Both the position numbers and the translations under genes were made by a program. This document shows positions 22,418 through 43,784 of a stretch of DNA of 47,797 nucleotides, piece by piece. Location of the stretch: UHGV virus genome UHGV-0368429; one strand, given 5' to 3'. This DNA is from a virus. The notes under the pieces are model-generated. The model was not told where the DNA came from. It saw only the letters and a list, made by a program, of their open reading frames with translations, and searched no databases. Within the stretch, counting starts at the first letter, position 1. Every line of letters starts with the position of its first letter.

Positions 22418-22433
22418 CTGTATATAAAAACAG
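22418..22433. promoter_or_regulatory. LexA (SOS) box upstream of umuD
   Basis: CTGTATATAAAAACAG = CTGT-N8-ACAG with AT-rich spacer, 18 bp before the umuD ATG; identical in form to the E. coli umuDC operator. Confidence 0.85.
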
Positions 22434-22872: not shown

Positions 22873-24141
22873 ATGTTCGCGCTCTGTGATGTGAATTCGT
22901 TCTACGCATCATGCGAGACGGTGTTTCGGCCTGATTTGAGGGGGCGCCCGGTTGTCGTTCTCTCGAATAATGATGGCTGCGTAATTGCGCGCAGCGCCGA
23001 GGCCAAAGCCGCCGGAATTACCATGGGTGAGCCTTTCTTCAAGCAAAAGGAGCTTTTCCGGCGCGCTGGCGTTGTTTGCTTCAGCAGCAATTACGAGCTG
23101 TACGCTGATATGTCGAACCGGGTAATGACGACGCTGGAAGAAATGAGCCCTCGCGTCGAAATATATAGCATCGATGAAGCTTTTTGCGACCTTACTGGTG
23201 TTCGAAACTGCCGGGACCTGACAGAGTTTGGCAAAGAGATCCGCGCGACGGTTCTGAAGCGTACGCACCTGACTGTCGGGATTGGCATCGCGAAAAGTAA
23301 GACCCTTGCAAAGCTGGCAAATCACGCCGCCAAAAAATGGCAGCGTCAGACGGGCGGAGTTGTTGATTTGTCCAATATCGATCGCCAGCGTCGGTTGTTG
23401 GCTATTGTGCCTGTGGAGGACGTATGGGGCGTCGGCAGGCGCATCAGTAAGAAGCTGAACGCCATGGGCATCAAAACGGCTCTGGACCTCTCAGAACAAA
23501 GCACATGGATTATCCGTAAACACTTTAACGTGGTACTCGAGCGAACGGTCCGGGAGTTGCGCGGCGAGCCTTGTCTTGATCTGGAGGAGTTTGCACCAGC
23601 TAAGCAGGAAATCGTCTGCAGTCGGTCATTCGGTGAACGCGTTACCGAATACGAACAGATGCGGCAGGCTATTTGCAGCTATGCGGCGCGTGGTGCTGAA
23701 AAGCTTCGCGGCGAACATCAGTATTGCCGTTTTATCTCTGCGTTCGTGAAGACGTCACCTTTTGCCCTGAACGAGCCGTATTACGGCAACAGCGCGTCAG
23801 TGAAGCTTCTCACCCCCACTCAGGATTCCCGCGACATCATCAACGCCGCGGTAAAGTGCCTGGACAAAATCTGGAAGGATGGGCACCGCTATCAAAAGGC
23901 TGGAATTATGCTGGGAGATTTTTTCAGTCAAGGGGTGGCACAGCTGAACCTTTTCGATGAGCACGCGCCGCGCGCTGGAAGCGATAAGTTGATGGATGTG
24001 CTCGATCACTTGAACGCGAAAGAAGGGAAAGGAACACTCTTCTTTGCCGGGCAGGGCATTCAACAGCAGTGGCAGATGAAGCGGCAGTTGCTTTCACCCC
24101 GATATACTACTCGCATATCAGATTTATTAATTGTGAAGTAA
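22873..24141 (+). CDS. umuC: UmuC-like Y-family translesion DNA polymerase (Pol V catalytic subunit)
   Basis: 422 aa; [41 protein letters not shown]... is the Y-family N-terminus; immediately follows umuD. Confidence 0.9.
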
Positions 24142-24166
24142 AAAGGCTGCTTAACGCAGCCTTTTT
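24141..24166. terminator. Bidirectional rho-independent terminator (umuC and convergent small ORF)
   Basis: AAAA-GGCTGC-TTAAC-GCAGCC-TTTTT; A-run on one side, T-run on the other. Confidence 0.7.
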
Positions 24167-24172
24167 AGTTAA

Positions 24173-24322
24173 TTAAGCAGCTTTTTTCTCGCTGCATTTG
24201 CAATGAGGGATAACAAAAACTTTCGCCTTTTTAGGGCGGATGATTTTACCATCCTTCATTACATAGGGCGTGAAGGTTACTTCACACGAATTCCCACATT
24301 TTGGACAATAGCCAGTTTTCAT
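24173..24322 (-). CDS. Unlisted small ORF (49 aa): zinc-ribbon-like protein, putatively SOS-regulated
   Basis: Translated by hand (below the 60-aa listing cutoff): MKTGYCPKCGNSCEVTFTPYVMKDGKIIRPKKAKVFVIPHCKCSEKKAA*; CPKC...HCKC; GGAG about 7 nt before ATG; LexA box 28 bp upstream; terminator downstream. Confidence 0.5.
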   Translation of the reverse strand: MKTGYCPKCGNSCEVTFTPYVMKDGKIIRPKKAKVFVIPHCKCSEKKAA

Positions 24323-24349
24323 GTGAGATCTCCTATGTAAATGTACAGC

Positions 24350-24365
24350 CTGTAAATCTAAACAG
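24350..24365. promoter_or_regulatory. LexA (SOS) box upstream of the small zinc-ribbon ORF
   Basis: CTGTAAATCTAAACAG = CTGT-N8-ACAG with AT-rich spacer. Confidence 0.65.
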
Positions 24366-24476
24366 ATTGCACCTTGTTAGGAGAACCACTATACTTTTAG
24401 CCGTCAAGCATTTTGTGTAGCGGTAGATTTCTCCATACACACCGAGTTATGCGTCAACATAGCTCGCCCCCTAAGA

Positions 24477-24500
24477 AGCCCTGCGTCAACAGGGCTTTTT
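24477..24500. terminator. Hairpin terminator just past the ImmA-like gene
   Basis: GCCCTG-CGTCAA-CAGGGC followed by TTTTTT on the plus strand, preceded by A-rich sequence. Confidence 0.5.
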
Positions 24501-24983
24501 TCAATAAAATTCAAAGCAAAGCTGTGCTGTTTGATAGCCCAATTTATCGAGCATCGTTTCTGCGAAAAGATCCGCCTGCCATTCAGAATCTTCATTTTGT
24601 TCCGGCATGGCATTCGCAAAGTGTAAGGCTGGCTTATGTTGTAGTAGCAAGTGCCCGAGCTCATGGAATATAACAAATAACGCTGATCGTTCACCGCCAC
24701 ATGCCATTTCATAGATATGGTTTGGAACCCTGATAGTCAGTTTGTCAGGTTCACAGTGTCCAATCGTTAGACCCAGCGTTTCCTGAAACCATTCGTCATC
24801 ATCCATTGGATCGAGGACAATATTCCATTGAGATAATGTTTCCAGCGCTACGTCAAATCTGCGCGGTCTACGCCGGTATTTATACTTACTAGTAAATCCG
24901 AGTGCAAAGCAAGCATTTACAGCTATCGCTTTAATTTCCATTTCACTCAGAGGACGAACACGTGTACCGCGCATTAAATGCAT
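24501..24983 (-). CDS. ImmA/IrrE-family zinc metallopeptidase (COG2856-like)
   Basis: 160 aa with HEXXH motif (FHELGHLLLQH); immediately downstream of an XRE HTH gene in the same orientation; AT-rich. Confidence 0.7.
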   Translation of the reverse strand: MHLMRGTRVRPLSEMEIKAIAVNACFALGFTSKYKYRRRPRRFDVALETLSQWNIVLDPMDDDEWFQETLGLTIGHCEPDKLTIRVPNHIYEMACGGERSALFVIFHELGHLLLQHKPALHFANAMPEQNEDSEWQADLFAETMLDKLGYQTAQLCFEFY

Positions 24984-25000
24984 AACAGTTTCCTAAGCAG

Positions 25001-25360
25001 TTATTTTTTGTTGATTTCTGCAAGTAATTCTGCAAATTTTTTTAATTCTTCATGGGTGAATTCCGATTTTGCAAAACCAGCAACAAGCATTTGTTGTTGC
25101 TTTGGTAAACCTTCAATAGGTACCAATTCATTCGCGATAGAAGCTAAAACATCGAGATCATCAATGTAATAACCTTGCGCTGCAAAAAGTTCATTGATTG
25201 CCGTTACCCATTTCTCTGGTATTTTTTTAGTCCCTGTTTCGAGCCCGCTTAGAAAAGCAGGTGTTGTTCCTAAAGCCTTTGCCATTGTAAGCAAAGTATA
25301 ACCAGTATCGATCCGAGCTTTCCTTACGGCCTTTCCGAAATCAGTAAGAGCCATAGTCAT
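25001..25360 (-). CDS. XRE-family helix-turn-helix transcriptional regulator
   Basis: 119 aa; N-terminal HTH (…FGKAVRKARIDTGYTLLTMAKALGTTPAFLSGLETG…); paired with the ImmA-like gene. Confidence 0.7.
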   Translation of the reverse strand: MTMALTDFGKAVRKARIDTGYTLLTMAKALGTTPAFLSGLETGTKKIPEKWVTAINELFAAQGYYIDDLDVLASIANELVPIEGLPKQQQMLVAGFAKSEFTHEELKKFAELLAEINKK

Positions 25361-25459
25361 ATCCTCAGTGCTTTCATTGTGGCTTACGCCAGATGTTCTA
25401 AATATACTCTAACCATAAAAAAAGTAAACTCATCAAGAAAAATAAATTAACCAAAAAGG

Positions 25460-26131
25460 TTAAGTTATTATTTCTATTAGATTTTTACCTTGATTTCTGG
25501 CGTTTCCAACCGCGCGTGTAACAGCGTGCCAGATAAACTTGTCGGCAGGCACTGCGCCGTCGGCTGCTATCTCTTCAGCTTCTTTCCCGCCTATATCCTG
25601 ACGTATCCACTCGCGAGCCGCTTCCGGTGACAGAACCAGTGGCCGGCGATCGTGAATATCGACCAGACCTTTATCAGCTGCAGATGTCACGATGAGAAAA
25701 CCTTCAGCTTCGTCTCCACGCTCAAATGGTGTGCTGCCGATAGCCGCCATAAATATTGGCTGGCCGTCGGCCCGGTGAATGAAGTAGGGCTGTTTCTTGT
25801 CTGCTTCCTTCTTCCATTCGAACCAGCCATCCGCAAAGCAGATCGCCCGGCCATGTTGCCAGAGAGGCTTGAACATTCGGCTGGTGGCCGCCGTCTCGAC
25901 GCGTGCGTTAATCAGTGGCGGTTTATCCCACCACTCGGGCGCGTAAGACCACAGGACTGGATCAAGATGCAGCTGCTCGTTGCGTTCGCTCAGGAGCAGC
26001 ACCTTGGTACCGGGCGAGACGTTGTACCGGCCTATAGGTTCCGGGTCATACGCAATGTCACGATCGGCTTCATCGGCCAAGTATGCCAGATATTCTTCAC
26101 GGGTTTGGGCTTGTGCAAAACGTCCACACAC
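25460..26131 (-). CDS. yedK: SOS-response-associated peptidase (SRAP; YedK/HMCES family abasic-site processing protein)
   Basis: 223 aa starting MCGRFAQAQTREEYLAYLADEADRDIAYDPEPIGRYNVSPGTKVLLLSERNEQLHLDPVLWSYAPEWWDKPPLINARVETAATSRMFKP..., matching E. coli YedK with the catalytic Cys2. Confidence 0.85.
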   Translation of the reverse strand: MCGRFAQAQTREEYLAYLADEADRDIAYDPEPIGRYNVSPGTKVLLLSERNEQLHLDPVLWSYAPEWWDKPPLINARVETAATSRMFKPLWQHGRAICFADGWFEWKKEADKKQPYFIHRADGQPIFMAAIGSTPFERGDEAEGFLIVTSAADKGLVDIHDRRPLVLSPEAAREWIRQDIGGKEAEEIAADGAVPADKFIWHAVTRAVGNARNQGKNLIEIIT

Positions 26132-26311
26132 AGGAACCTCCAGTCAGTAAGACTGAAAGTATAGGGCAGGGAGAAAAAGTAGTGTGCGCTGGTTAAGTCC
26201 TACAAACGGATTCGCGCTGATTATGCTAATGAGGATGAAATGCGTAAAGCGATGCGTTGTGAAACTGGAAGGAGCTACGCAAAGTTGCGACAATGCCAAA
26301 AGAGAAAGCTA

Positions 26312-26335
26312 AACCCGGTAGGGGATCCGGGTTCG
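26312..26335 (-). terminator. Hairpin terminator downstream of dinI
   Basis: Inverted repeat AACCCGG-TAGGGGAT-CCGGGTT; T-containing tract follows on the minus strand. Confidence 0.4.
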
Positions 26336-26356
26336 CTGTGATGACAATATGGAAAT

Positions 26357-26797: not shown

Positions 26798-26807
26798 AAT
26801 GTATTTT

Positions 26808-26853
26808 TGGTCGGCACGAGAGGATTTGAACCTCCGACCCCCGACACCCCATG
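26808..26853 (-). other. attP core: 3'-terminal 46 nt of a tRNA-Pro-like gene (partial tRNA, not intact)
   Basis: Reverse complement CATGGGGTGTCGGGGGTCGGAGGTTCAAATCCTCTCGTGCCGACCA has T-arm, acceptor 3' strand and CCA and matches the 3' part of E. coli proL as recalled; the 5' half is absent; int is adjacent. Confidence 0.65.
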
Positions 26854-26904: not shown

Positions 26905-26940
26905 TTTGACTGTATATGCAAACAGTGCATTTTTTGCAAA
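26905..26940 (-). promoter_or_regulatory. LexA-box-containing promoter-like element between int and attP, oriented toward attP
   Basis: CTGTATATGCAAACAG (26910..26925); on the minus strand TTGCAA-17-TATACA flanks and overlaps it. Confidence 0.4.
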
Positions 26941-34168: not shown

Positions 34169-34795
34169 TTAGAGTTCGTACTGAACGCCTTTAACTACGC
34201 CAATAATGAGGCAGTTACCATTGATCGGGATGTTGGGGTAGCGAGGATTTAGTGGGACTAAAAATTTTTGTGGGCCATCAATGACCAGTTTTTTAACAGT
34301 CGCTTCGTTAGTGCCATCAATACGCGCAACAACAATCTTGCCATGAAGGGGTTCGGCATCTGGATCAACAATAACGGTTGCCCCTTCAGGGATTGTTGGG
34401 AGGCCATTTGGATTGGTCATTGAATCCCCTTTGACCTCTAAAGCGAACGAGCTATCCCCAATGCGTAGTGATGTTTCAACCCATTTATCAACATCACTGA
34501 ATAAATCAGCGGCCTTACATTCCGTAAACTGCCCAGCTTGAACCCAGGAAATCACGGGCACACGCCTCATTTTAGTTATGAGGGTACCTTCAAATTCAGT
34601 GCCGTAAAGAATGTAATCTATTGATGTATTGAAGAATTTAGCCAGCTTAACCAGCGATTCTCCGTTTGGGATATTCACATCCTTTTCCCAATAACCCACC
34701 GCTACGTCACTAACCCCGCAGAACTTACCCAGTTCTTTTTGAGAGGTTTTTGTAACCCTGCGTAGGGCTTTAATGCGCTGACCAACCGTTTCCAT
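34169..34795 (-). CDS. cI: CI-like repressor (HTH + LexA-like S24 self-cleaving domain)
   Basis: 208 aa; N-terminal HTH; C-terminal ...AG...GDSM...K... catalytic motifs; divergent from cro across the oR region. Confidence 0.85.
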   Translation of the reverse strand: METVGQRIKALRRVTKTSQKELGKFCGVSDVAVGYWEKDVNIPNGESLVKLAKFFNTSIDYILYGTEFEGTLITKMRRVPVISWVQAGQFTECKAADLFSDVDKWVETSLRIGDSSFALEVKGDSMTNPNGLPTIPEGATVIVDPDAEPLHGKIVVARIDGTNEATVKKLVIDGPQKFLVPLNPRYPNIPINGNCLIIGVVKGVQYEL

Positions 34796-42731: not shown

Positions 42732-43784
42732 ATGAAAAATACTGTAAATATAAACAGTGTTGAGCTTGTCAACGCTGACTGCCTGCAATACCTCGCAACC
42801 CTCCCAGATAACACCATCGACCTTATTGTTACGGATCCGCCTTATTTTAAGGTGAAGCCGAACGGCTGGGATAATCAGTGGAATGGTGACGCCGACTATC
42901 TTCGCTGGCTTGATATGTGTCTTGCCCAGTTCTGGCGAGTGCTTAAGCCTGCCGGCAGCCTGTATTTGTTTTCAGGTCACCGACTTGCATCCCATATTGA
43001 GATCATGATGCGTGAACGCTTCAACGTCATGAACCACATTATCTGGGCGAAGCCATCAGGGCGCTGGAACGGGTGTAATAAAGAAAGCCTGCGCTCTTAC
43101 TTTCCCGCGACGGAACGCATCCTTTTCGCTGAGCATTATCAGGGGCCATATAAGCCGAAAAGCGACGGATTTGCTGAGAAAAGCAACGAGGTCAAACAGC
43201 ACGTCATGGCTCCGTTAATCACCTACTTTCGGGAAGCACGAGCCGAACTGGGGGTCACGTCCAGGCAAATAGCTGACGCCACCGGAAAGAAAAATATGGC
43301 GTCTCACTGGTTCGGTGCCAGTCAGTGGCAACTACCGAACGAGCAGGATTACGAAAAGCTGCAGGAATTGTTCACTCAGATCGCCATTGAGAAGCACCGC
43401 GCCTCTGAACTCAAAGCACCGCATCACCAGCTGGTGGCCACATGGCATTCGTTGAACCGGAAATACCTTGATCTGCTGGAAGAGTACAAATCTCTTCGGC
43501 GGCATTTCTCTGTGACAGTAGCCGTGCCCTATACAGACGTCTGGACACATAAACCCGTCCAGTTCTATCCAGGCAAACACCCGTGCGAAAAGCCCGCTGA
43601 TATGTTGCGGCAAATCATCAACGCCAGCAGCAGGCCCGGCGATGTGGTAGCTGATTTCTTTATGGGCTCGGGATCAACTGTTAAAGCAGCCATTGAACTG
43701 GGCCGCCAGGCTATCGGCGTAGAACTGGAAGAGGAACGTTTCAACCAGACGGTAAGTGAGGTAAGGCAGCTGGCAGGGGAATAA
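42732..43784 (+). CDS. DNA methyltransferase, DPPY class (N6-adenine or N4-cytosine)
   Basis: 350 aa; motif order ...IDLIVTDPPYF... (catalytic) before ...FFMGSGST... (SAM-binding) is beta-class. Confidence 0.8.
   Translation: MKNTVNINSVELVNADCLQYLATLPDNTIDLIVTDPPYFKVKPNGWDNQWNGDADYLRWLDMCLAQFWRVLKPAGSLYLFSGHRLASHIEIMMRERFNVMNHIIWAKPSGRWNGCNKESLRSYFPATERILFAEHYQGPYKPKSDGFAEKSNEVKQHVMAPLITYFREARAELGVTSRQIADATGKKNMASHWFGASQWQLPNEQDYEKLQELFTQIAIEKHRASELKAPHHQLVATWHSLNRKYLDLLEEYKSLRRHFSVTVAVPYTDVWTHKPVQFYPGKHPCEKPADMLRQIINASSRPGDVVADFFMGSGSTVKAAIELGRQAIGVELEEERFNQTVSEVRQLAGE

Follow-up and report, generated by a model that had tools for sequence, protein, structure and literature searches.

The XRE-family repressor gene and the neighbouring ImmA-type metallopeptidase gene would, in the reading that we prefer, make up the regulatory part at the front of an autonomous cassette that spreads horizontally, and act as a self-regulated ImmR/ImmA-like switch whose output is its own operon plus a small protein; we hold this reading tentatively, at slightly less than an even chance. 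The pair lies in a prophage setting in the virus genome UHGV-0368429, which was analysed as a single stretch of 47,797 nucleotides (the window). Judging from its sequence features, the cassette shows no sign of being a regulator of umuDC, yedK or dinI. As shown in Table 1, it would consist of an operator and promoter, the XRE gene, the ImmA-type M78 gene, a structured spacer containing a LexA box and a putative opposite-strand promoter, and the small-protein gene, in that order.

Table 1. Features of the XRE-M78 cassette (positions in the window; promoters, operator and RNA are predictions)
Feature	Position	Strand	Description
Hairpin at cassette end	24136..24170		common to the convergent small ORF and umuC; 15-nt arms, 93% complementary inverted repeat
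Small ORF, 49 aa	24173..24322	-	basic, all-beta, four-to-five-cysteine, zinc-ribbon-like; third conserved cassette gene
Second LexA box, one mismatch	24333..24348		overlaps small-ORF Shine-Dalgarno
Perfect LexA box CTGTAAATCTAAACAG	24350..24365		1 nt upstream of plus-strand -35; 27 nt upstream of small-ORF start
Promoter-like TTGCAC-17-TATACT	24367..24395	+	points towards peptidase gene, away from small ORF
Candidate antisense small RNA, ~100 nt	24398..24506	+	three hairpins, ending with HP1 and UUUUUU
Hairpin HP3	24415..24440		invariant CUCC (plus strand) in 3' arm, adjoining the loop
Hairpin HP2	24443..24466		loop repeats HP1 loop; TGTTGACGCA twice on cassette strand
Hairpin HP1	24473..24500		directly 3' of peptidase stop; inverted repeat; intrinsic-terminator-like, U-run on plus strand
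M78 (ImmA/IrrE family) zinc metallopeptidase	24501..24983	-	160 aa, catalytic domain only (Pfam, invariant residues, CapP alignment)
XRE-family repressor	25001..25354	-	117 aa; ORF extendable to 25360 (119 aa); N-terminal HTH and three-helix C-terminal domain
Sigma-70-like promoter TTTACT-16-TATATT of the XRE-M78 operon	25401..25428	-	consensus scan, 9/12 matches
Palindrome TTAACCAAAAAGGTTAA, predicted XRE operator	25447..25463		perfect; overlaps yedK stop codon; sole perfect copy in window

The surroundings of the pair proved to be largely as the sequence-only reading had described them. Both genes are genuine minus-strand ORFs (25001-25360 and 24501-24983) in an AT-rich block, with a GC content of 0.35-0.43 (24001-25500), whereas most of the window has about 0.5-0.57. 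They sit among SOS genes, since yedK (SRAP), dinI, umuD and umuC were confirmed by Pfam and perfect LexA boxes were located at 22418 (umuD), 24350 (before the small ORF) and 26638 (dinI). Upstream of the pair lies yedK, and downstream the small ORF and the convergent umuC. The phage also encodes Cro and, as claimed, its own LexA-like CI (34169-34795; HTH_3 and Peptidase_S24). In a related Klebsiella phage an annotation of the pair was already present.

The peptidase matched Pfam Peptidase_M78 (PF06114, COG2856) with 28.7 bits (gathering cut-off 22, E 1.3e-6) and PHROG 87 'metallo-protease' (E 1.9e-12). Residues H107, E108, H111, H116, H121 and E134 were invariant in an alignment of 19 homologues, down to 40% identity, and E134 aligned with Glu129 of CapP (7t5t), the third zinc ligand of that enzyme (bioRxiv 10.1101/2022.04.27.489752). 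As judged from the alignment, the HEXXH...E active site is intact; its loss, raised in the sequence-only reading as a possible objection, was not found. At E<=1e-10 the relatives amounted to 138 cluster representatives, almost all of about 150-200 aa, and nearly all of the best 150 listed fell in that size range, most as full-length matches. No sensor domain could be recognised in the 160-aa protein (active site at residues 107-134), and its size and that of its relatives leave no space for a GAF domain or a linker. Weak PADLOC matches to capP, capH, RmrA and Lit, as well as an NCBIfam match to Lit, were also obtained (E 1e-4 to 1e-2); the PADLOC matches reached about 20 bits or less, those of the peptidase covered only residues ~82-145 around HEXXH, and the capH-type matches to the repressor spanned the HTH only.

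The repressor matched Pfam HTH_31, HTH_3 and HTH_19 with E values of 1e-4 to 2e-3, all under the thresholds (22.7 bits against a gathering score of 27, and 20.2 against 23). Its AlphaFold model (pLDDT 88) showed a five-helix HTH domain followed by three C-terminal helices, and Foldseek searches with this model retrieved the XRE repressors ClgR, SinR, C.BclI, 434 Cro and HigA. The C-terminal three-helix domain contains the near-invariant stretch QQQMLVAGFAKS, and identity within the family ranged from 43 to 100% across Gamma- and Betaproteobacteria. Because most close homologues among the matches listed are 117 aa long (98% of the query covered), translation probably starts at the second ATG (25354), which is preceded by AGGAAA. 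The two genes, both on the minus strand, are separated by 17 nt.

A perfect TTAACC-N5-GGTTAA palindrome occurred once in the 47.8-kb window, at the XRE gene's own promoter, and copies with two mismatches were at chance level (3 found vs 1.16 expected). The motif TTAACC-N5-GGTTnA was present in 106 of 123 distinct upstream regions, at a median distance of about 100 nt from the XRE start, compared with 6 of 100 shuffled sequences. From this distribution we infer that the XRE repressor binds to the palindrome. In non-enteric loci, inspected by eye, its right half forms the -35 element TTGAAT, with a TAnnnT -10 element after 16-18 nt. In the window, its centre is about 61 bp upstream of the predicted start and 18 nt beyond the -35 element; this position is not classic for repression and counts against a model of autorepression, whereas in most other loci the palindrome overlaps the -35 element. 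No LexA box was found in the XRE promoter region 25361-25459.

The M78 gene was directly downstream of the XRE gene in 62 of 66 species-level genome loci and in 147 of 150 loci overall. In loci gathered only by their XRE protein, the peptidase gene was followed in essentially every case by a member of the small-ORF family, and the order XRE-peptidase-small ORF was kept from Enterobacterales to Burkholderiales and Neisseriales. The small ORF, which had been taken as a boundary of the pair's block, is thus part of the conserved unit. Pairwise identities were correlated between XRE and M78 (r=0.78), XRE and the small protein (0.50), and M78 and the small protein (0.56). No other neighbouring gene family was common to more than five loci; the neighbours were lysis genes, integrases, nin-region genes or chromosomal genes, and only 4 of the 66 genome loci adjoined umuDC. 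Since all other neighbours differ between loci, the cassette is, on this comparative evidence, an autonomous moron carried by phages of the Mu-like, P2-like, lambdoid and other types. Its hosts included a Mu-like Pasteurella phage, Pseudomonas phage H66, a Burkholderia phage, and lambdoid Klebsiella and E. coli O55:H7 prophages, within a range that covers Enterobacterales, Pasteurellaceae, Vibrio, Pseudomonas phage H66 and Burkholderia phages. Contig NZ_SJOO01000008 of Enterobacter wuhouensis WCHEW120002 encodes XRE, peptidase and small-ORF proteins identical to those of the window; other lysogens with the cassette are a Klebsiella strain with ST846-OXA48phi9.2 and E. coli O55:H7 DEC5A. By distant blastn the cassette was detected in 54 of 5426 E. 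coli genomes, and a megablast search of E. coli genomes and plasmids with this region returned no near-identical copies.

The spacer and small ORF also occurred without XRE-M78 upstream, in about 10 of 52 viral contigs with enough upstream sequence. In two such contigs that were inspected, the spacer followed HicAB and a 146-aa ORF in one and an unrelated pair of 108-aa and 305-aa ORFs in the other, and in a further locus (L005) spacer and small ORF were tandemly duplicated without the pair. Hence this unit can work, or at least move, alone.

An HMM of the small ORF matched at the same position in 133 of 150 loci, and the motif was recognised by eye in the other 13 with sequence there. The relatives are basic beta or zinc-ribbon proteins of 35-60 aa. 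The AlphaFold model of the small protein (pLDDT 78) gave nothing below E=2 in Foldseek searches against the PDB, the top matches, eL24 and Hfq, being not significant. Searches of Pfam, PHROGs, NCBIfam and PADLOC with the window protein or with ten diverse members did not yield a functional identity; the profile results were unknown-function PHROGs and sub-threshold zinc-knuckle matches only, and no homology to SymE or to the Lar/RalR family was detectable. Neither the scan nor inspection by eye found a sigma-70-like promoter on the cassette strand between the peptidase gene and the small ORF; the same scan recovers the dinI promoter overlapping the dinI LexA box. In the annotation by the authors of phage H66, terminators are placed only after the small ORF. 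The spacer element and the small ORF are missed by current genome annotation. In RefSeq, the small-ORF/spacer stretch is blank in E. coli.

A perfect CTGT-N8-ACAG box occupied the same spacer position in 33 of 43 sequence variants, and in three variants (L073, L099 and L105) the second LexA box was perfect at the position corresponding to 24333-24348. The proposal that the pair responds to damage independently of LexA is therefore doubtful, because those 33 variants carry a perfect LexA box as part of the cassette.

The spacer is a conserved structured element with covarying hairpins. In HP2, 7 of 9 base pairs had changes on both sides and 92% of cells were paired; HP3 was paired in 80% of cells, with two such pairs, and HP1 in 98%, with compensatory changes rare. 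On the opposite strand, the eight bases following HP1 included at least five U in 37 of 41 variants; on the cassette strand this was so in 2 of 41. The plus-strand spacer folded with -34.7 kcal/mol (z -4.8, MFE frequency 0.35) and the minus strand with -32.2 kcal/mol (z -3.0, frequency 0.06); HP3 folded better on the plus strand in 29 of 37 variants, and the strand evidence from G-U pairs is moderate, the sequences being related. A promoter-like TTGnnn-17-TAnnnT, with the spacing invariant at 17 nt, was found on the plus strand in 42 of 43 variants; its window copy, with 8 of 12 consensus positions, is under the tool's 9-of-12 threshold, so that the argument for this promoter is its conservation. 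Taken as a whole, these features suggest that the strand opposite the cassette encodes a roughly 100-nt antisense RNA which belongs to no Rfam family. A covariance model of the spacer found one copy in the window (81.8 bits), and copies at the corresponding site in every enterobacterial and Rheinheimera locus, with weak matches there in Pasteurellaceae. No Rfam family reached its gathering score in the whole window. In a search of 24000-25600 up to E=10, 24323-24503 had no match apart from SQ2397 at its edge (24323-24347; 20 bits, E 0.83, gathering score 100). A fourth hairpin, HP4, around a TTGAC motif partly covaries; it was left out of the RNA model because it overlaps the plus-strand -10 element.

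In 35 of 41 variants HP2 repeated the loop of HP1, and at least nine different loop sequences were seen between loci; the twin loops are thus identical within a locus and differ between loci. A search for 6-8-mers of the twin loops and their complements over 6 kb on each side of 22 loci gave no consistent second site, and comparison by eye with the small-ORF ribosome-binding region and the XRE leader gave no match. Covariation of the loop sequence with the type of small protein was rejected on inspection, near-identical small proteins carrying either CGCTAA or CTAGGA loops. An anticodon-loop mimic (YU-NNN-R) as a strand-specific model was dropped as well, since in roughly half of the loci the loop has the opposite orientation to the remainder of the element.

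On the preferred reading, an XRE dimer on TTAACC-N5-GGTTAA at its own promoter would keep the operon low. Upon a trigger, the peptidase would cut the conserved C-terminal helical domain of the repressor, in the manner of ImmA/ImmR, CapP/CapH and IrrE/DdrO; the cut would be expected in the QQQMLVAGFAKS helix, around residues 86-97. Transcription of the operon, which would begin at 25394, would then rise and might continue past HP1, a weak terminator on the cassette strand, to the small ORF, which is probably what the cassette puts out. The ~100-nt opposite-strand RNA, starting from a promoter that abuts the LexA box and predicted to run from about 24402 to 24501, would be antisense both to the leader produced by read-through and to the peptidase mRNA at its 3' end. 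This arrangement would link the cassette with the SOS response of the host. The model does not account for the two identical loops.

The sequence-only reading had suggested a second DNA-damage switch, independent of LexA and governing the cargo, which would mean control by the repressor of the adjacent umuDC, yedK and dinI, or else of phage genes. The location of the pair among SOS genes, and the fact that M78 and XRE pairs are damage-responsive switches elsewhere, speak for it, yet we consider it highly improbable: the palindrome occurs once, at the cassette's own promoter, with weaker matches at chance level, umuD and dinI have LexA boxes of their own, as does the cassette, and pair and small ORF travel together through about 150 loci with otherwise unrelated neighbours, umuDC being a rare one. 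The LexA box in the spacer also fits a different division of the locus, into two independent neighbours that gather at prophage moron sites, namely the XRE-M78 pair and a type I toxin-antitoxin-like unit as in tisB/istR or RalR/RalA, in which the small basic protein would be paired with an antisense RNA that is divergently oriented and has a LexA box. Such a unit would have its own LexA box, promoter-like element and terminator, and spacer and small ORF are found behind HicAB, behind the unrelated 108-aa and 305-aa pair, and in the tandem duplication of L005. We nevertheless regard this division as fairly unlikely, since nearly all loci gathered by XRE have the same-family small ORF after the peptidase, the three proteins co-diverge, and the small ORF has no detectable cassette-strand promoter.

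The moron-like spread across unrelated temperate phages could also indicate prophage defence or abortive infection, with the peptidase or a toxic small protein as the effector and XRE only keeping expression low. Lit, which cleaves EF-Tu, is a model for a peptidase in that role. The capP, capH, RmrA and Lit matches and the fast-evolving loop sequences, which resemble specificity determinants, point the same way; the matches are, however, weak and partial, and the window has no defence genes close to the pair. In pneumococcus, the COG2856 proteins tested showed no toxicity (PMC4257102), a result that also speaks against a classical type II toxin-antitoxin pair, in which the M78 peptidase would be the toxin and XRE the antitoxin. 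We judge a defence role distinctly unlikely and the type II pair hardly probable at all. For the latter, comparative genomics did predict Xre-COG2856 systems (PMC2701414), a Brucella Zn-metalloproteinase and HTH-Xre pair has been described as toxin-antitoxin (PMC10538038), and one database labels an XRE homologue 'Toxin-antitoxin s...'. The same study, however, favoured cleavage of the repressor by the protease as part of a larger circuit (PMC2701414), and a two-gene model leaves no role for the conserved third gene or for the structured spacer.

Among the gene pairs of phages and mobile elements that still lack an explanation, those of XRE and M78 are some of the commonest, and the subfamily described here is a compact and widespread case in which a likely output, a likely operator and a built-in LexA link can all be named. 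It also corrects an easy misreading, that of the pair as a regulator of the adjoining error-prone polymerase cargo. With stems that covary and two loops that change in concert, the conserved spacer is a candidate for a new regulatory RNA of phages. In antisense RNA systems of plasmids and phages, specificity is set by recognition loops. A more speculative form of the preferred reading, which we find doubtful though worth stating, is a previously undescribed four-part phage module in which the ImmA-type switch and a LexA-gated antisense RNA jointly control a new family of small basic beta or zinc-ribbon proteins, with the identical, fast-evolving and U-turn-like twin loops as specificity determinants. 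Were this true, prophages residing in one host would be expected to have versions orthogonal to each other, and the small protein to be an effector, for example of growth arrest, exclusion or induction timing.

Cleavage of repressors by M78 proteases has precedents (bioRxiv 10.1101/2022.04.27.489752, PMC13228613, PMC6868357, PMC12828697). By sequence, CapP is the closest solved relative of the peptidase (7t5t, E 0.083, aligned through HEXXH...E..QADLFA), and the repressor resembles CapH in having an HTH and a helical C-terminal domain; the weak PADLOC capH and capP matches are a further resemblance. CapH is cut in the first helix of its C-terminal domain (bioRxiv 10.1101/2022.04.27.489752). 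CapP and IrrE are three-domain proteins of ~240-290 aa with a C-terminal GAF sensor (bioRxiv 10.1101/2022.04.27.489752), CapP consisting of peptidase, linker and GAF, with a cysteine-switch loop and with ssDNA bound in an inter-domain groove (PMC13228613; bioRxiv 10.1101/2022.04.27.489752). CapH/CapP regulate an associated immune operon (PMC13228613; bioRxiv 10.1101/2022.04.27.489752), whereas no defence operon was found adjoining the pair. The peptidase also differs from CapP in being the catalytic domain only, without GAF, and in lacking a cysteine in the HELGH-to-E134 loop, where the invariant H116 and H121 stand instead.

The sequence-only reading had likened the pair to both ImmR/ImmA and DdrO/IrrE; the former has held up as the better analogue, and the latter fails on architecture (160 aa, no linker or GAF). 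With DdrO/IrrE (PprI) of Deinococcus the pair would share cleavage by an M78 protease of the XRE repressor's C-terminal dimerisation domain, which in IrrE occurs on DNA damage, and DdrO was among the fold matches of the XRE model (rank 46, E 0.28). IrrE controls a chromosomal regulon through the RDRM motif. It is a three-domain protein with GAF, in contrast to the one-domain peptidase of a mobile element with a single operator of other sequence.

In tisB/istR-1, symE/symR and RalR/RalA, the small-protein and small-RNA genes are divergent or antisense around a LexA box, and LexA-linked type I toxin-antitoxin RNAs end in an intrinsic terminator. YUNR-like loops are typical of antisense RNA recognition loops. 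The locus resembles these systems in its small-protein gene and candidate RNA around a LexA box, its terminator and its YUNR-like loops; it differs in that the small protein is not a hydrophobic membrane peptide. RalR is a small zinc-ribbon toxin. Twin identical loops are not known from tisB/istR-type systems. Makarova, Wolf and Koonin (2009; PMC2701414) predicted a mobile cassette in which a COG2856 protease cleaves an Xre repressor that controls a third effector gene. The third part of that three-component toxin-antitoxin prediction is a RelE or PIN toxin, whereas here it is a 35-60-aa basic beta or zinc-ribbon protein after a structured element adjoining a LexA box.

ImmR/ImmA of Bacillus ICEBs1 and phage phi105 differs from the pair in its distant sequence, the ImmR HTH (7t8i) giving a profile match of E 0.75. 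ImmR is the master repressor of its element. Such a role over excision or lytic genes does not fit the XRE repressor of the window, where the phage has its own CI and Cro and the sole detectable XRE operator is at the cassette's own promoter. The conserved small third gene and the structured spacer with its LexA box are further differences. The two systems are alike in having an XRE gene followed by a single-domain M78 (COG2856) gene of ~160-170 aa on a mobile element, and by analogy with ImmR the repressor would be expected to be autoregulated and cut in its C-terminal part.

Two neighbouring minus-strand ORFs of 119 and 160 amino acids, separated by 17 nt and with a ribosome-binding site (AGGAAA) preceding the ATG of the second, form the XRE repressor and ImmA/IrrE-type peptidase pair that the sequence-only reading had described. 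The 160-residue product scored 28.7 bits against Pfam Peptidase_M78 (PF06114), exceeding its curated cut-off of 22, and matched PHROG 87 ('metallo-protease') with an E-value of 1.9e-12. In an alignment of 19 homologues with at least 40% identity, residues H107, E108, H111, H116, H121, E131, D132 and E134 were invariant, as was the stretch WQAD (135-138); H107, E108, H111 and E134 being among them, the HEXXH...E site is intact, and the disrupted site that the sequence-only reading had named as refuting it is not seen. A PDB profile search aligned HELGH...DSEWQADLFA with the motif of CapP (7t5t), so that E134 falls on CapP Glu129, the third zinc ligand of that protein (bioRxiv 10.1101/2022.04.27.489752). 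Residues 112-133, between HELGH and E134, are the counterpart of the CapP cysteine-switch loop; they contain no cysteine and include the invariant H116 and H121, for which an autoinhibitory role would be speculation. At E<=1e-10 we retrieved 138 cluster-level relatives, nearly all of about 150-200 amino acids and matching over their full length.

Matches of the repressor to Pfam HTH_31, HTH_3 and HTH_19 were all below threshold. In its AlphaFold model (pLDDT 88) three further helices come after an HTH domain of five helices, and Foldseek retrieved with this model the XRE-type repressors ClgR, the phi106 repressor, SinR, Stl and HigA, with DdrO at rank 46. Most of the close homologues listed are 117 amino acids long and align to 98% of the query, which makes the second ATG (25354) the probable site of translation initiation. 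By itself the pair is ordinary: Klebsiella phage ST846-OXA48phi9.2, 93.6% identical across the pair region, already carries the labels 'ImmA/IrrE family metallo-endopeptidase' and 'XRE family transcriptional regulator' in the public records.

The surroundings were also read correctly. The block is AT-rich (GC 0.35-0.43 versus about 0.5-0.57 over most of the window), its flanking genes are yedK (SRAP), dinI, umuD and umuC, perfect LexA boxes precede umuD, dinI and a small ORF beyond the peptidase gene, and the phage encodes its own LexA-like CI (HTH_3 plus Peptidase_S24) together with a P22-type Cro. The analogy with a protease-cleavable repressor is likewise reasonable, but the interpretation built on it, a second, LexA-independent damage switch over the SOS cargo, is not supported. 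The anatomy described below is that of an autonomous cassette that contains a LexA box and has no recognisable target other than itself.

The predicted operator is a palindrome upstream of the repressor gene. The form TTAACC-N5-GGTTnA was present in 106 of 123 distinct upstream regions, compared to 6 of 100 shuffles, at a median of 103 nt before the start codon, in keeping with how strongly the HTH domain is conserved. The right half of the palindrome constitutes the -35 element (TTGAAT) in most non-enteric loci, followed after 16-18 nt by a TAnnnT -10; such an overlap with the -35 is the layout classically associated with autorepression. In the window, the palindrome is centred near -61 relative to the best promoter, a caveat for autorepression. 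No second perfect copy was found in the whole 47.8-kb window, and with two mismatches allowed there were 3 matches versus 1.16 expected by chance. There is therefore no sequence evidence for the repressor at umuDC, yedK, dinI or the phage immunity region, and umuD and dinI have LexA boxes of their own, so that the proposed control of neighbouring cargo finds no backing. Upstream of yedK, in contrast to umuD and dinI, there is no LexA box even when one mismatch is allowed. The palindrome overlaps the yedK stop codon, which makes the cassette insertion very tight.

Coordinates of the features in the window
Feature	Position	Strand	Remarks
Small ORF	24173-24322	minus	49 aa
Spacer	24323-24503		peptidase to small ORF
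LexA box, perfect	24350-24365		ends one base before plus-strand -35
Promoter-like element	TTGCAC 24367-24372, TATACT 24390-24395	plus	identified by conservation
Spacer covariance model match	24398-24506	plus	81.8 bits
HP3	24415-24440
HP2	24443-24466
HP1	24473-24500
M78 peptidase gene	24501-24983	minus	160 aa
XRE repressor gene	25001-25360	minus	119 aa
Best promoter, TTTACT-16-TATATT	25428-25401		18 nt further downstream of palindrome
Perfect palindrome TTAACCAAAAAGGTTAA	25447-25463		overlaps yedK stop codon
yedK (SRAP)	25460-26131
yedK-dinI interval	26132-26356
Promoter-like site	26248-26220		between yedK and dinI
Terminator-like hairpin	26334-26311		between yedK and dinI
tRNA 3' fragment	~26806-26852		attachment-site core, beside integrase
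LexA box, perfect, CTGTATATGCAAACAG	26910-26925		between tRNA 3' fragment and integrase gene 3' end
N6/N4 DNA methylase ORF	42732-43784		350 aa
LexA box, perfect, CTGTAAATATAAACAG	42742-42757		10 nt inside methylase ORF start

Related loci were gathered by means of the repressor protein alone and comprised 66 one-genome-per-species contigs and 80 IMG/VR sequences, to which several annotated phages and one E. coli prophage were added (150 loci overall). The peptidase gene lies immediately 3' of the repressor gene in 62 of the 66 genome loci and in 147 of all 150, and a small ORF of 35-62 amino acids on the same strand begins about 130-200 nt past the peptidase stop. Its representative in the window is what the sequence-only reading called the small SOS ORF. 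Two HMMs built from clear examples located this ORF at the expected position in 133/150 loci; the other 13 loci with sequence there all displayed, by eye, an ORF with the core pattern of the small protein. Beyond the cassette genes, comparison of neighbours among the collected loci revealed no gene family common to more than five of them. The cassette lies between Mor and the lysis genes in a Mu-like Pasteurella phage, adjoins the integrase in Pseudomonas phage H66 and in a Burkholderia phage, is found among early-region genes beside a dinI gene in Klebsiella phage ST13-OXA48phi12.4, and occupies the nin region of an E. coli O55:H7 prophage; in the window its place is the cargo region that separates the tail-fibre genes from the attachment site. 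Given that the pair and the small ORF stay constant while neighbours and settings vary, the cassette is a three-gene moron moving as a block through temperate phages of Gamma- and Betaproteobacteria. Distant blastn detected it in 54 of 5426 complete E. coli genomes. In strain O55:H7 DEC5A (locus L152, NZ_CP038394, 4840-5271) the nin-region cassette adjoins hokD, and RefSeq annotates XRE and ImmA/IrrE there, leaving out the spacer and the 49-aa small ORF.

The core of the small protein reads hydrophobic-F/Y-R-x-aromatic...K-x-G...G...F/W-x-I/L-x-V, and the cysteines that give the window protein a zinc-ribbon look occur in some clades only. No Pfam family matched, and some members hit only PHROGs 33859 and 21154, both of unknown function. 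The AlphaFold model is a small all-beta fold (pLDDT 78) for which Foldseek returned no structural neighbour. Betaproteobacterial loci (e.g. L037, L042, L057, L062) carry a second small-ORF type, PKxVHVRAYxRxRxGxxExVCxHCRSxP, belonging to PHROG 21154, and two Pseudomonas loci (L064, L066) carry this type and a GTFILRWTR type in succession.

A less likely alternative is that the pair and the spacer with its small ORF are two modules, merely neighbours. A search of IMG/VR with the most conserved spacer block yielded 64 stretches, 63 of which were analysed and 52 had enough upstream sequence. XRE-M78 lay upstream in 35 of these; about 6 were chance matches in which the element is absent, and about 10 contained the complete spacer plus the small ORF with no XRE-M78 ahead of them. 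Two such units were inspected in detail: one follows HicA-HicB and a 146-aa ORF (an arrangement seen in L163 and L178), the other an unrelated pair of 108 and 305 amino acids (seen in L158, L174, L198 and L205), and none of the 108-, 305- and 146-aa proteins matched Pfam. Moreover, spacer and small ORF are duplicated in tandem in a Providencia rustigianii locus (L005, 6854-7520), each copy with its own perfect LexA box and both with CGCTAA loops. Occurrence behind other cassettes and this duplication indicate that the unit is portable by itself. A small ORF after the peptidase is, however, near-universal across very distant clades, which speaks against the two-module reading, as does the co-divergence of the three proteins, with pairwise-identity correlations of 0.78 (XRE-M78), 0.50 (XRE-small) and 0.56 (M78-small). 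Mean pairwise identities (repressor 0.54, peptidase 0.40, small protein 0.38) show that the repressor evolves most slowly.

Within the three-gene cassette, the spacer is conserved at the nucleotide level in 66 loci. A GC-rich hairpin, HP1, stands directly 3' of the peptidase stop codon and is followed by HP2 and HP3. The HP2 stem is compensatory, with 7 of 9 pairs varying on both sides and 92% of cells paired; the covariation observed for the whole structure was reached by none of 500 shuffles, and sliding the partners lowered pairing from 90% to 33-51%. Four features point to a putative transcript from the opposite (plus) strand. A TTGnnn-17-TAnnnT element with invariant 17-nt spacing is present on that strand in 42 of 43 sequence variants. 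At least five U within 8 nt after HP1 occur on the opposite strand in 37/41 variants and on the cassette strand in 2/41. The plus-strand fold of 24402-24503 (-34.7 kcal/mol, z -4.8, MFE frequency 0.35) is better defined than the minus-strand fold (-32.2 kcal/mol, z -3.0, MFE frequency 0.06), and HP1 and HP3 fold better on the plus strand in most variants, which are related, so that the p-values exaggerate the support. Finally, the perfect LexA box is kept in 33 of 43 variants, and 7 of the remaining 10 have the palindrome CGCAAAT...ATTTGCG at that position. A spacer covariance model found a single copy in the window, matched at the corresponding position in every enterobacterial and Rheinheimera locus and gave weak matches in Pasteurellaceae; Rfam searches returned no family resembling the element. 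A scan for sigma-70-like promoters on the cassette strand found none for the small ORF, whereas it recovered the dinI promoter overlapping the dinI LexA box, and the authors of phage H66 annotated terminators only after the small gene. On these grounds we propose that the small ORF would be reached mainly by read-through from the repressor-peptidase operon, and the opposite-strand RNA would be antisense to its read-through leader.

HP1 and HP2 have the same loop within a locus, at constant spacing, in 35/41 variants. The shared sequence comprises 6-10 nt and, with the closing pairs, is often a perfect 10-nt repeat (TGTTGACGCA twice in the window). Between loci there are at least nine loop sequences, TTGACG, CGTCAA, CGCTAA, CTAGGA, TTGGCA, CTTCGAA, CTGCAAA and GTGAGA among them; loops differ even between closely related cassettes, and some are reverse complements within the same stems. 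On one strand or the other they match a YUNR-like pattern, of the kind that characterises the recognition loops of antisense RNAs. A search within 6 kb on each side in 22 loci turned up no consistent second site for the loops, and neither a target nor a partner co-varying with them was found, the small-protein type included. The concerted change of both loops suggests a specificity determinant.

Collectively, the output of the cassette is likely the small uncharacterised protein, accompanied by a conserved candidate antisense RNA; we infer the mechanistic steps that go beyond this anatomy. In the libraries and papers searched we found no description of the four-part organisation, of the family of small proteins or of the element with twin loops. 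Two further perfect LexA boxes occur in the window, one beside the integrase gene with no obvious gene downstream, and one inside the methylase ORF that may mark the true methylase start or an SOS-controlled promoter.

The closest solved relative by sequence is CapP, weakly (E 0.083). CapP and IrrE comprise peptidase, linker and GAF domains, and CapP has a cysteine-switch loop (PMC13228613, bioRxiv 10.1101/2022.04.27.489752); both the three-domain arrangement and the loop are absent from the 160-aa peptidase. As it has no sensor domain, a partner may supply its trigger; candidates are ssDNA, the small protein and, as has been reported in the case of ImmA, a RecA filament. A 2009 study (PMC2701414) had predicted, in general terms, control of a third, effector gene by an Xre-COG2856 pair, but the third gene there is RelE or PIN and that of the cassette belongs to another family. 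COG2856 proteins tested in pneumococcus were non-toxic (PMC4257102), which speaks against the peptidase being simply a toxin. The best functional analogue is ImmR/ImmA, in which, as here, the gene of a small single-domain M78 peptidase follows that of an XRE repressor on a mobile element.
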